A stretch of DNA of 64,000 nucleotides from Candidatus Saccharimonadota bacterium. Its GTDB lineage: Bacteria > Patescibacteriota > Saccharimonadia > Saccharimonadales > SZUA-47. The notes beneath the pieces are model-generated. The model was not told where the DNA came from. It saw only the letters and a list, made by a program, of their open reading frames with translations, and made no database searches. Position numbers and translations under genes: made by a program. Where the stretch lies: contig CP065013.1 in the NCBI GenBank assembly GCA_016700315.1, forward strand, positions 193,449 to 257,448, in the 5' to 3' direction. Below are positions 63,690 to 64,000 of this stretch, piece after piece (position 1 is the stretch's first letter; every line of letters begins with the position of its first letter).

Positions 63690-64000
63690 GCAGCGAGTAG
63701 TAAGTCCGCCGAAGGTGGACTTGGTGGAACGATGAACGAGGAGGAGAAAACCTAAACACTAGGTAGTATTAAGTATTGTGTATCATGTATGAGTCCACAG
63801 ATAGTAGCAAGTAGTTAGTAGTAAGTAGCAAGCATGAAATTCTAAACTCTAAATCCTAAACAAAGATAGTACCAAGTATTATGTATCATGTATGAATTAG
63901 ACCTTAGACCCTAGACCCTAGACCCTAGACCCTAGACCCTAATCACTCTAACCTCTAACCTCTAACCTAATCTTGGCTCTTGGCTCTTCCATCAACTATA
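63690..64000. repeat. mosaic heptamer array (runs to the window end)
   Basis: Two NNGTATN blocks, GTAGCAA/GTAGTTA/GTAGTAA, TTCTAAA-type runs, TAGACCC x5, TCTAACC x3 and GGCTCTT x2. Confidence 0.9.

Follow-up and report, generated by a model that had tools for sequence, protein, structure and literature searches.

A stretch of 64,000 nucleotides of a Candidatus Saccharimonadota genome (NCBI GenBank assembly GCA_016700315.1, contig CP065013.1, positions 193,449 to 257,448 of the forward strand; the whole stretch is called the window below, position 1 being its first letter) ends inside a mosaic array of tandem heptanucleotides. The array, which occupies 63726-64000 and runs on past the window, is a succession of heptamer blocks with a 7-nt period. 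It is a non-coding composite repeat between the divergent promoters of a gene for a membrane protein with weak matches to bacterial PH (bPH) domains and of a tRNA-Arg(CCU) gene. Sister copies are dispersed through the window, and each copy is an order-preserving, same-polarity subset of a series of about 0.5 kb, composed of heptamer blocks and unique linkers. The account that we favour, and consider reasonably probable, is that of a lineage-specific dispersed repeat resembling the short tandemly repeated repetitive (STRR) sequences of cyanobacteria, which would change by in-register slippage and by recombination between copies and would probably be nearly neutral. The descriptive and evolutionary parts of this account rest on direct evidence; the lack of function is its least certain part.

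The period of the arrays was assessed by a scan of the whole window. A self-match of at least 60% at lag 7 was found in 0.9% of 42-nt segments, versus at most 0.06% at any other lag from 3 to 12. With self-match this low at the other lags, the 7-nt period of the arrays is not a chance effect. The lag-7 segments are concentrated in a handful of intergenic places. Altogether, the window contains five large and four small arrays (the latter at 4.9, 14.0, 22.2 and 26.65 kb), which make up about 2% of its length and all lie outside the open reading frames (ORFs) of the gene map. An earlier reading of the same letters, referred to here as the original prediction, had described 63690-64000 as a mosaic of heptamer blocks, and Tandem Repeats Finder (TRF) together with a block parse confirmed this.

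Read along the plus strand, the array begins with a left-end segment at 63726..63783, which includes GAACGAT, GAACGAG and GAGGAGA units (63727-63747) and the linker AAACCTAAACACTAGGT. A first GTATnnn block (GTAGTAT, TAAGTAT, TGTGTAT, CATGTAT) was placed at 63763..63790 by the parse and by alignment with the 39.3-kb copy and with a copy on contig L007, from a Saccharibacteria metagenome-assembled genome (MAG). An AGTAGNA block of five units (AGATAGT, AGCAAGT, AGTTAGT, AGTAAGT, AGCAAGC) is located at 63799..63833. In this region TRF reported an AGTAGTA-type repeat of 4.3 copies at 63803-63832, and the block has a 25-nt exact run in common with the 39.3-kb copy. A TCTAAAN block (GAAATTC, TAAACTC, TAAATCC, TAAAC) was delimited by parse and alignment at 63836..63861, and the parse gave a second GTATnnn block at 63866..63898, whose terminal word is GTATGAATT (63890-63898). 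The TAGACCC block, with 6.3 copies and 97% matches in TRF, spans 63898..63941. It is followed by the linker TAATCA and by CTCTAAC (63946..63968; 3.3 copies, 100% matches in TRF), and the non-periodic junction word CCTAATCACTCTAACC, located by exact matches at 63938..63953, bridges the TAGNCCC and CTCTAAC blocks. The next block is TCTTGGC with 2.6 copies at 63971..63988, which reads TCTTGAC in the 28.9-kb copy; TRF and alignment with that copy support both this block and the preceding one. At 63990..64000 the sequence enters a CTATCAA/CTATAAA-type module, which is cut by the end of the window.

Four sister copies were delimited in the window. A double unit lies between gyrB and a DUF7927 gene (28836..29170, plus strand), a further copy upstream of an Mg-chelatase/ComM-like gene (39280..39570, plus strand), and a short, inverted copy between rpmB and an M50 peptidase gene (46690..46805, minus strand). 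The fourth (56530..56717, plus strand) has the stop codon of a minus-strand 549-aa gene on one side and, on the other, a hairpin followed by a T-run. By this position the 56.5-kb copy is probably within the 3' untranslated region (UTR) of the 549-aa gene; the terminator-like hairpin and T-run near 56.7 kb were judged by eye only. Segment 63869-63988 aligned with 28840-28959 at 95.8% identity over 120 nt, without gaps and with an 80-nt exact run (E = 4e-52), which bears out the near-collinearity with the 28.9-kb copy that had been proposed. The substitution noted at that time, CTTGGCT here against CTTGACT in the 28.9-kb copy, was read correctly, whereas one extra TCTAACC, also noted, was an error: three units are present in both copies, and CTATAAC in the 28.9-kb copy corresponds to CTCTAAC here. 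Upstream, two GTAT blocks, a GTAGNAA block and a TCTAAA block had been likened to the 39.3-kb copy, and these upstream blocks of the 63.7-63.9 kb copy indeed matched 39285-39407 at 85% over 123 nt. For the left end, a 45-nt module common to 46.8 kb had been suggested; BLAST recovered the match (46748-46805), but over 58 nt (89.7% identity) and in inverted orientation.

The order of the blocks is the same from copy to copy. Proximally it runs GAACGAT, linker, GTATnnn, AGTAGNA, TCTAAAN and a GTATnnn block ending in GTATGAATT. Distally two branches were found, one consisting of TAGACCC, TAATCA, CTCTAAC and TCTTGRC, the other of CAGTNNN, CTATCAA/CCATAAA, TAGNCCC, TAATCA and CTCTAAC. The fullest copy is a 570-nt allele at the site of L007 that is orthologous to 46.7 kb of the window. 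All other copies are collinear with it in one polarity, and no inverted high-scoring segment pairs (HSPs) were found between the copies and this reference copy. The 28.8-kb copy of the window, for example, matched the L007 copy, at a different locus, at 93.8% over 289 nt. The junction word CCTAATCACTCTAACC has five exact occurrences (0.01 expected) and is present in all five large copies, while GTATGAATT occurs five times in the window (0.57 expected), always in arrays, and is likewise exact in each of the large copies. Unique linkers and a block order held in common cannot arise by independent slippage, and hence the copies descend from one composite sequence. Shared ancestry of the copies is shown by the identical non-periodic junction words and the collinear, same-polarity matches. 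The earlier view, in which recombination has assorted blocks from one shared set into the different copies, therefore holds, but the order is fixed and there is no free shuffling. Paralogous segments at different loci are 94-96% identical, compared with 96-99% for orthologous flanks. Paralog identity this close to that of the flanks suggests that the copies either arose recently from a common source or still exchange sequence with one another.

That the window ends inside the array, as predicted, was verified with contig L002, from which the sequence beyond position 64000 was taken. L002 is 99.9% identical to window positions 60273-64000 over 3.7 kb, reaches position 64000 and extends the array by about 180 nt. 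The blocks there follow in the order TAGNCCC-like, GGTACGG-like, TAGNCCC x5, TAATCA, CTCTAAC x5 and a CTATCAA-type tail. After the array come about 45 nt of unique sequence and then tRNA-Arg(CCU), on the array's strand, at virtual positions ~64226-64300. This continuation places the element between two divergently oriented genes. The full element measures about 455 nt, of which the window holds the left 60% or so.

The exact protein of the left gene was found on contigs in 66 index blocks of the metagenome collection, from several metagenomes, and 23 contigs were examined. Between this gene and tRNA-Arg three alleles of 563, 232 and 234 nt were observed, with flanks that are 98.2-99.9% identical. 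The 563-nt allele is carried by the window, by L002/L040 and in part by L003. At least seven assemblies carry the 232-nt allele without any difference, and their flanks share 98.2-98.7% identity with the window. The 232-nt allele has little in common with the 234-nt allele beyond the end modules. Three alleles were also found at the 46.7-kb site, where the window and nine other assemblies have the 231-nt allele without a single base difference, and long alleles of ~530-570 nt are present in L007 and L033. The 39.2-kb copy was uniform in all assemblies recovered apart from one substitution. Unit counts were constant throughout, in three assemblies for the long allele, in at least seven for the 232-nt allele, in ten for the 46.7-kb short allele and in all for the 39.2-kb copy. 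Thus, among the assembled contigs compared, the unit-number polymorphism that the original prediction had raised was absent between near-identical strains. In lineages with 1-3% flank difference, whole modules were replaced or deleted, and alignable pure blocks differed by 28, 21, 14 or 7 nt.

Further away, an 82%-identical ortholog of the flanking protein is followed by a spacer of ~65 nt to tRNA-Arg with no array, and in a relative at 55% identity no lag-7 arrays were detected across 20 kb of the syntenic region. The absence of arrays in relatives points to a lineage-specific gain that is not needed for basic expression of the flanking genes. When one genome per species was scanned for exact CCTAATCACTCTAACC, the sole match was an uncultured Candidatus Saccharibacteria MAG. 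The corresponding exact junction-word scan of the metagenome collection returned three loci, one of them unrelated. With so few loci in the two scans no census is possible; breakage of assemblies at the arrays probably accounts for the low number. Viral scans revealed no copy of the element; their matches were unrelated TAGACCC runs and a fragment of a Bacteroidales Mu-like phage.

Gene content also differs at the arrays. In most strains gyrB and the DUF7927 gene are separated by a Peptidase_M16 gene, which is absent in the window and in L014, L017 and L018. In the window a 231-nt array (28812-29042) stands in place of ~1.6 kb bearing Peptidase_M16 (L011/L013, 1252-2896). Presence or absence of the M16 gene cuts across strains of similar divergence (97.7-98.9%).

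The question whether the array is genuine or mis-assembled, which the original prediction had left to further data, could be answered at the level of assemblies. Three independent assemblies from different samples (the window, L002/L040 and L003/L039) have exactly the same bases over 63664-63988, the six TAGACCC units among them. Contig L003 (= L039), from the Joint Genome Institute (JGI), runs from 63.99 kb into 28.84 kb within the 80-nt exact repeat (contig positions 2526-2645). This join is either an assembly chimera or the junction of a tandem duplication or excised 35-kb circle between two direct copies, and a switch within an 80-nt repeat indicates that arrays can mislead or break assemblers. 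Many contigs terminate inside arrays, and among the index blocks listing flanking proteins the longest contig measured only 2-5 kb in 57 of 66 and in 96 of 117. Such short contigs, with ends within arrays, are evidence that the arrays break short-read assemblies. Both the L003 join and the frequent contig ends could be cited for the view that the array or its copy numbers are an artefact of collapsed or chimeric repeats. Yet the agreement of three assemblies on 63664-63988 and the identity of the 232-nt allele in at least seven assemblies render this view extremely improbable.

The left gene (63121..63663, minus strand) was defined by its ORF and translation. Its product is a 180-aa membrane protein that matches Pfam bPH_3 and bPH_2 slightly under the cut-offs, and the start codon of the gene is on the side of the array. 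Annotation places homologs of the flanking protein in Saccharibacteria, Saccharimonadales or Patescibacteria. Exact look-up of a 212-aa version of the left-flank ORF with a GTG start gave no match, and neither did look-up of P0002, a 76%-identical ortholog. A near-identical NCBI contig, JAKOVZ010000048.1, did not come up in the look-ups of the flanking proteins, and the extension past position 64000 therefore rests on L002. A TATAAT hexamer at 63670..63675 (minus strand), 6 nt upstream of the ATG and outside the repeat blocks, is likely the -10 box of a leaderless or near-leaderless promoter of the left gene, as judged by its position; it was not picked up by the promoter consensus scan. The M50 peptidase gene at 46.85 kb has the same TATAAT layout upstream. 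The hexamer lies only 6-7 nt from the ATG in both genes (63661-63675; 46845-46860), which suggests that the bPH-domain and M50 genes have leaderless mRNAs. Between the left-gene promoter and the first block an inverted repeat, AGTCCGCC-GAA-GGTGGACT, was located at 63703..63721; in short-allele strains this position is taken by AGTCCGTC-GAA-GGCGAACT. The window, which has a GC content of 45.5%, also carries an rRNA operon, RNase P RNA, gyrB-gyrA, ribosomal protein genes and several tRNA genes.

Predicted folding was compared with that of shuffled sequences. A long hairpin or structured RNA had been suggested by the G/T/A-rich left and C/T/A-rich right halves of the arrays, and it was rejected by the folds. 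Eleven of twelve folds, covering six large arrays on both strands, showed no significant excess of structure over shuffles (z -1.4 to +2.0), the exception being the minus strand of the 56.5-kb copy (z = -2.5). On the plus strand the large arrays have very low absolute fold stability. No Rfam family matched any array at gathering thresholds. A promoter cassette was rejected as well, as no sigma-70-like sites were found within arrays, and a scan detected no intrinsic terminators inside them. The 28.8-kb array stops just short of the gyrB promoter, TTGCCA-17-TATAAT at 28803-28775, and the arrays are 60-120 nt or more from start codons. Coding potential was rejected on account of stops in all frames and the absence of ORFs. 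A regular-expression search for G-quadruplex (G4) motifs found three canonical motifs in the window, compared with 0.58 expected, all on the minus strand of TAGNCCC blocks: at 63916-63939, where the motif is formed by the complement (GGGTCTA)n of the TAGACCC block, at 28887-28910 and at 39518-39540. No motif was found in other block types, in the 3-unit block at 29.1 kb, in short alleles or in TAGTCCG/TCGTCCC units. G4 formation was rejected as a unifying function because TAGNCCC blocks alone qualify and the motif is lost in many alleles. With respect to placement, large arrays were found in four of nine divergent gaps versus one of 28 other gaps (Fisher p = 0.008, on a crude gene map and a small sample), so that four of the five large arrays lie in divergent gaps.

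The arrays were compared with known families of short tandem repeats. Like the STRR sequences of Calothrix, Nostoc and Anabaena, they consist of tandem 7-nt units of several heptamers, are intergenic and dispersed in many copies, and have no known function. The units of STRR1, STRR2 and STRR3 are said to be CCCCAGT, TTGGTCA and CAACAGT. Arrays of two or three units of these words, mismatches allowed, were not found in the window; the nearest units are 1-2 nt off after rotation, which is about chance. TAGTCCC and CAGTAAA, for instance, are one substitution from rotations of the STRR1 and STRR3 units, near what chance would give. Unlike STRR sequences, the present arrays belong to a Saccharibacteria host and not to a (heterocystous) cyanobacterium, and their blocks stand in one fixed order with conserved unique linkers, so that each locus is a version of a single composite element. 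STRR heptanucleotide arrays have been reported for Calothrix PCC 7601 (cited in Rehm 2015, PMC4692102). The G4-forming GGGNATC heptamers of Xanthomonas and Nostoc (Rehm 2015, PMC4692102) resemble the TAGNCCC blocks in being non-coding and in having a G3 tract, by which four or more units make a canonical G4 motif. In contrast to these repeats, solely the TAGNCCC blocks qualify here (GGGTCTA/GGGACTA, minus strand), and many alleles break the motif. GGGNATC-type repeats are preferred between co-oriented ORFs and under-represented between divergent ORFs (Rehm 2015, PMC4692102), whereas the Saccharibacteria arrays are enriched between divergent genes, opposite to that location rule. Arrays of GGGAATC or GGGGAYT were not found in the window.

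The TAACTGA repeats known from marine Beggiatoaceae, from cyanobacteria and from Bacteroidetes (MacGregor 2015, PMC4679880) are likewise intergenic direct heptamers with a patchy distribution and stop codons within the unit. However, they have one unit type and lie a few nt upstream of start codons, while the Saccharibacteria arrays have many types, form long mosaics and lie upstream of promoters. No TAACTGA array was found in the window. The CAGTTAT unit of the CAGTNNN block at 39425-39458 is a rotation of the complement of TAACTGA. Kinship of the units to STRR or TAACTGA words was rejected, the similarity being at chance level. Among long simple repeats of 5-11 nt, heptanucleotides are the most abundant according to Mrazek et al. 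2007, as reported in PMC4679880 and PMC4692102, and a proposal of polymerase slippage is attributed to the same study by MacGregor 2015 (PMC4679880). The present arrays agree with such long simple sequence repeats (SSRs) in their period of 7, in a proposed slippage origin and in pure-block differences that are multiples of 7 nt; common linkers, fixed order and a single polarity, on the other hand, are not explained by slippage at independent sites. With the SSRs of contingency loci the arrays share short tandem units near promoters. They differ in lying outside ORFs and outside -35/-10 spacers, the promoter hexamers of the gyrB and bPH genes both being outside the arrays. A phase-variable contingency locus was rejected, as unit counts are identical across 7-10 assemblies of near-identical strains, and unit numbers this stable are not those of a hypermutable contingency locus. 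In being short, non-coding, dispersed and intergenic in many copies, the arrays are similar to repetitive extragenic palindromes (REP), REPINs and MITEs (miniature inverted-repeat transposable elements). Assignment to these was rejected because there is no palindrome, no hairpin and no terminal inverted repeat, and the interior consists of tandem heptamers. No target-site duplication was seen by eye when the 563-, 232- and 234-nt alleles and the array-free ortholog were compared, with no clean empty site among the close strains. Full-text searches of the literature gave no description of such arrays for Saccharibacteria or other candidate-phyla-radiation bacteria. The family resembles the known kinds in consisting of intergenic tandem heptamers, but it departs from them in sequence, host or location and adds a fixed order of many blocks with conserved linkers.

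In the account that we favour, new units would arise by replication slippage or unequal exchange in the 7-nt register. Homologous recombination or gene conversion, among copies or across strains, would delete, add or exchange modules; module exchange between strains would fit natural competence in Saccharibacteria. The elements would persist mainly where insertions are tolerated, which is the promoter-distal space between divergent genes, and would probably have no sequence-specific function of their own. Their side effects may be to serve as recombination substrates, to provide a G4-prone strand and to act as breakpoints in short-read assemblies.

A number of observations weigh against this account. 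The evidence from populations consists of assembled contigs only, which may be chimeric at repeats, and the 234-nt allele, whose flank is 98.6% identical, comes from a single contig. Of 22 alignment gaps, only 6 have a length divisible by 7, and those in degenerate linkers do not. Selection could be reflected in the enrichment of large arrays in divergent gaps, in the conservation of linkers and junctions across copies, and in the stability of unit counts across 7-10 independent assemblies. Composition is also biased. TpA steps are in excess (rho 1.49; whole window, 0.93) and are phased at 7/14/21 bp. Stop trinucleotides show a 1.5-2.1-fold enrichment on the plus strand (z 2.1-6.6) and some enrichment on the minus strand. 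Along each array the G/C skew flips from G-rich to C-rich.

One alternative is that the arrays are functional DNA-level cis elements between divergent promoters. They would be either supercoiling-absorbing spacers or insulators, in which slipped or G4 structures would take up the negative supercoiling caused by transcription, or platforms to which a protein binds by recognizing phased TpA/TAG steps in the DNA. The divergent-gap enrichment, the phased TpA excess, the confinement of G4 motifs to arrays, the conserved junction words and the stable unit numbers all speak for such a role, as does the gyrB site, where the array starts ~30 nt upstream of the -35 box and promoters remain outside. Nevertheless, alleles of the same locus (232 versus 234 nt) share almost no blocks except the ends, the 82%-identical relative does without any array, and one copy lies in a probable 3' UTR. 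G4 capacity is missing in many alleles (TAGTCCG/TCGTCCC units, the 29.1-kb 3-unit block), and the many heptamers would need many binding specificities. We regard a cis role as unlikely. The arrays might instead act as transcribed RNA, unstructured, dense in stops and with a C-rich, G-poor distal half, by unloading ribosomes in all three frames and by loading Rho or single-strand-binding proteins (S1 or cold-shock proteins), and so limit read-through or antisense transcription in both directions. Most folds are weaker than those of shuffles and plus-strand stability is very low, stop trinucleotides are enriched on both strands, and the switch from G-rich to C-rich makes the distal half C-rich and G-poor whichever direction is transcribed. 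Moreover, a stop codon and a terminator-like hairpin flank one copy, and binding of S1, Csp or CsrA has been proposed for TAACTGA heptamers (MacGregor 2015, PMC4679880). But four of the five copies lie between genes transcribed away from the arrays, the longest open frames in arrays are not significantly shorter than in shuffles, and the arrays are missing from relatives, so that we hold an RNA role to be very improbable.

Insertion of a non-autonomous mobile element by a recombinase or transposase, rather than by homologous recombination, would account for dispersed copies with common unique linkers and one polarity, for presence or absence at orthologous sites, for the copy that adjoins a tRNA gene and for the ~230-nt replacement at the gyrB site. 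This explanation, which we consider improbable, is at odds with the lack of terminal inverted repeats, inverted HSPs, a predicted hairpin and a consistent left terminus, with the failure to see a target-site duplication by eye between filled and short alleles, and with the absence of a transposase gene associated with the copies; besides, the alleles can be derived from each other by internal deletions between repeated modules. A bolder version of events combines several of these elements. Here the arrays would be no passive microsatellites but copies of a hitherto undescribed polar composite element of ~0.5 kb with ordered heptamer blocks, which would actively spread or recombine among promoter-distal intergenic sites of a streamlined genome, exert a cis function and drive gene loss and rearrangement. 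Candidates for the cis function are a bidirectional insulator, a platform for unloading ribosomes and polymerase, and a scaffold for a heptad-reading nucleic-acid-binding protein. Its role in gene loss and rearrangement is suggested by the replacement of the M16 peptidase gene and by the junction between 63.9 and 28.9 kb. We judge this combined version to be distinctly unlikely.

Heptanucleotides are reported to be the most over-represented long simple repeats in bacteria, and their origin and function are not understood. The nearly neutral, STRR-like repeat that we favour adds an example from a reduced candidate-phyla-radiation genome, and one with a clear internal grammar. This block grammar shows a common ancestry of the copies and not an independent origin at each site, and natural alleles of differing block content exist between nearly identical flanks. 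The arrays fragment short-read assemblies, occasionally mis-join them and mark sites of strain-variable gene content, which bears on how Saccharibacteria MAGs are read. Natural transformation is possible in some Saccharibacteria (PMC10633639), and array deletion or swapping could therefore test directly whether the repeats matter.

The small arrays of the window were inspected as well. Those beside the 5S and 16S genes (14025-14091 and 22190-22290) form strong hairpins, unlike the large mosaics. In the 14.0-kb array GAATGAG (x4.4) pairs with TCGTTCT (x3.9) via G-U wobbles (z = -11 for the plus strand but only -4.7 for the rRNA-sense strand), and in the 22.2-kb array TTCATCG units stand opposite GAACGATGAA (z = -3.8). 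The rRNA operon itself (13891-22170) is unusual. The 16S, 23S and 5S genes are on the minus strand, whereas tRNA-Ala and tRNA-Ile (19051-19282), between 16S and 23S, are on the plus strand. The rRNA spacers contain two LAGLIDADG endonuclease ORFs (14706-15194 and 20060-20449) and an Rfam match to group-II-intron D1-D4 at 20458-20539, and the 23S match extends over 3116 nt for a model of 2925 positions. At 4873-4954, between divergent ribosomal protein S1 and ROK-kinase genes, AATTTTC x3 and TACTTGC x3.7 were found. The TACTTGC units put TTGCTA 17 nt upstream of CATAAT before the ROK start, by which this array may supply a -35 element. A degenerate period-7 GGCTGTT repeat of ~20 copies with 62% matches (33980-34120) lies in the 3' end of a 948-aa minus-strand ORF and encodes a low-complexity C-terminal tail rich in Q/P/A/S/T/N. 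It may be a heptamer array absorbed into coding sequence.

Heptamer arrays were also seen outside the window. In the Mu-like phage fragment L060 (IMGVR_UViG_3300005083_000303) nearly every intergenic gap has a short heptamer array (300-370, 1926-2103, 3228-3309, 3757-3844 and 4253-4338). Its transposition ATPase is 65-66% identical to proteins of Dysgonamonadaceae and Prevotellaceae MAGs. The AGTAGCA/AGTAGTT units of the fragment include a 22-nt exact match to the window, and its unit types TAGCAAG, TGAGAAT, TAATAAT, AATTGAG and ACTAACT each contain a stop codon. Two CXWK01 metagenome contigs, L009 (370-650) and L010 (1370-1455), carry arrays of the same vocabulary at loci absent from the window. 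Among their units are CTAACTA blocks, which exactly complement GTAGTTA blocks of the array they belong to, and one of the arrays starts at the stop codon of a histidine-kinase gene.

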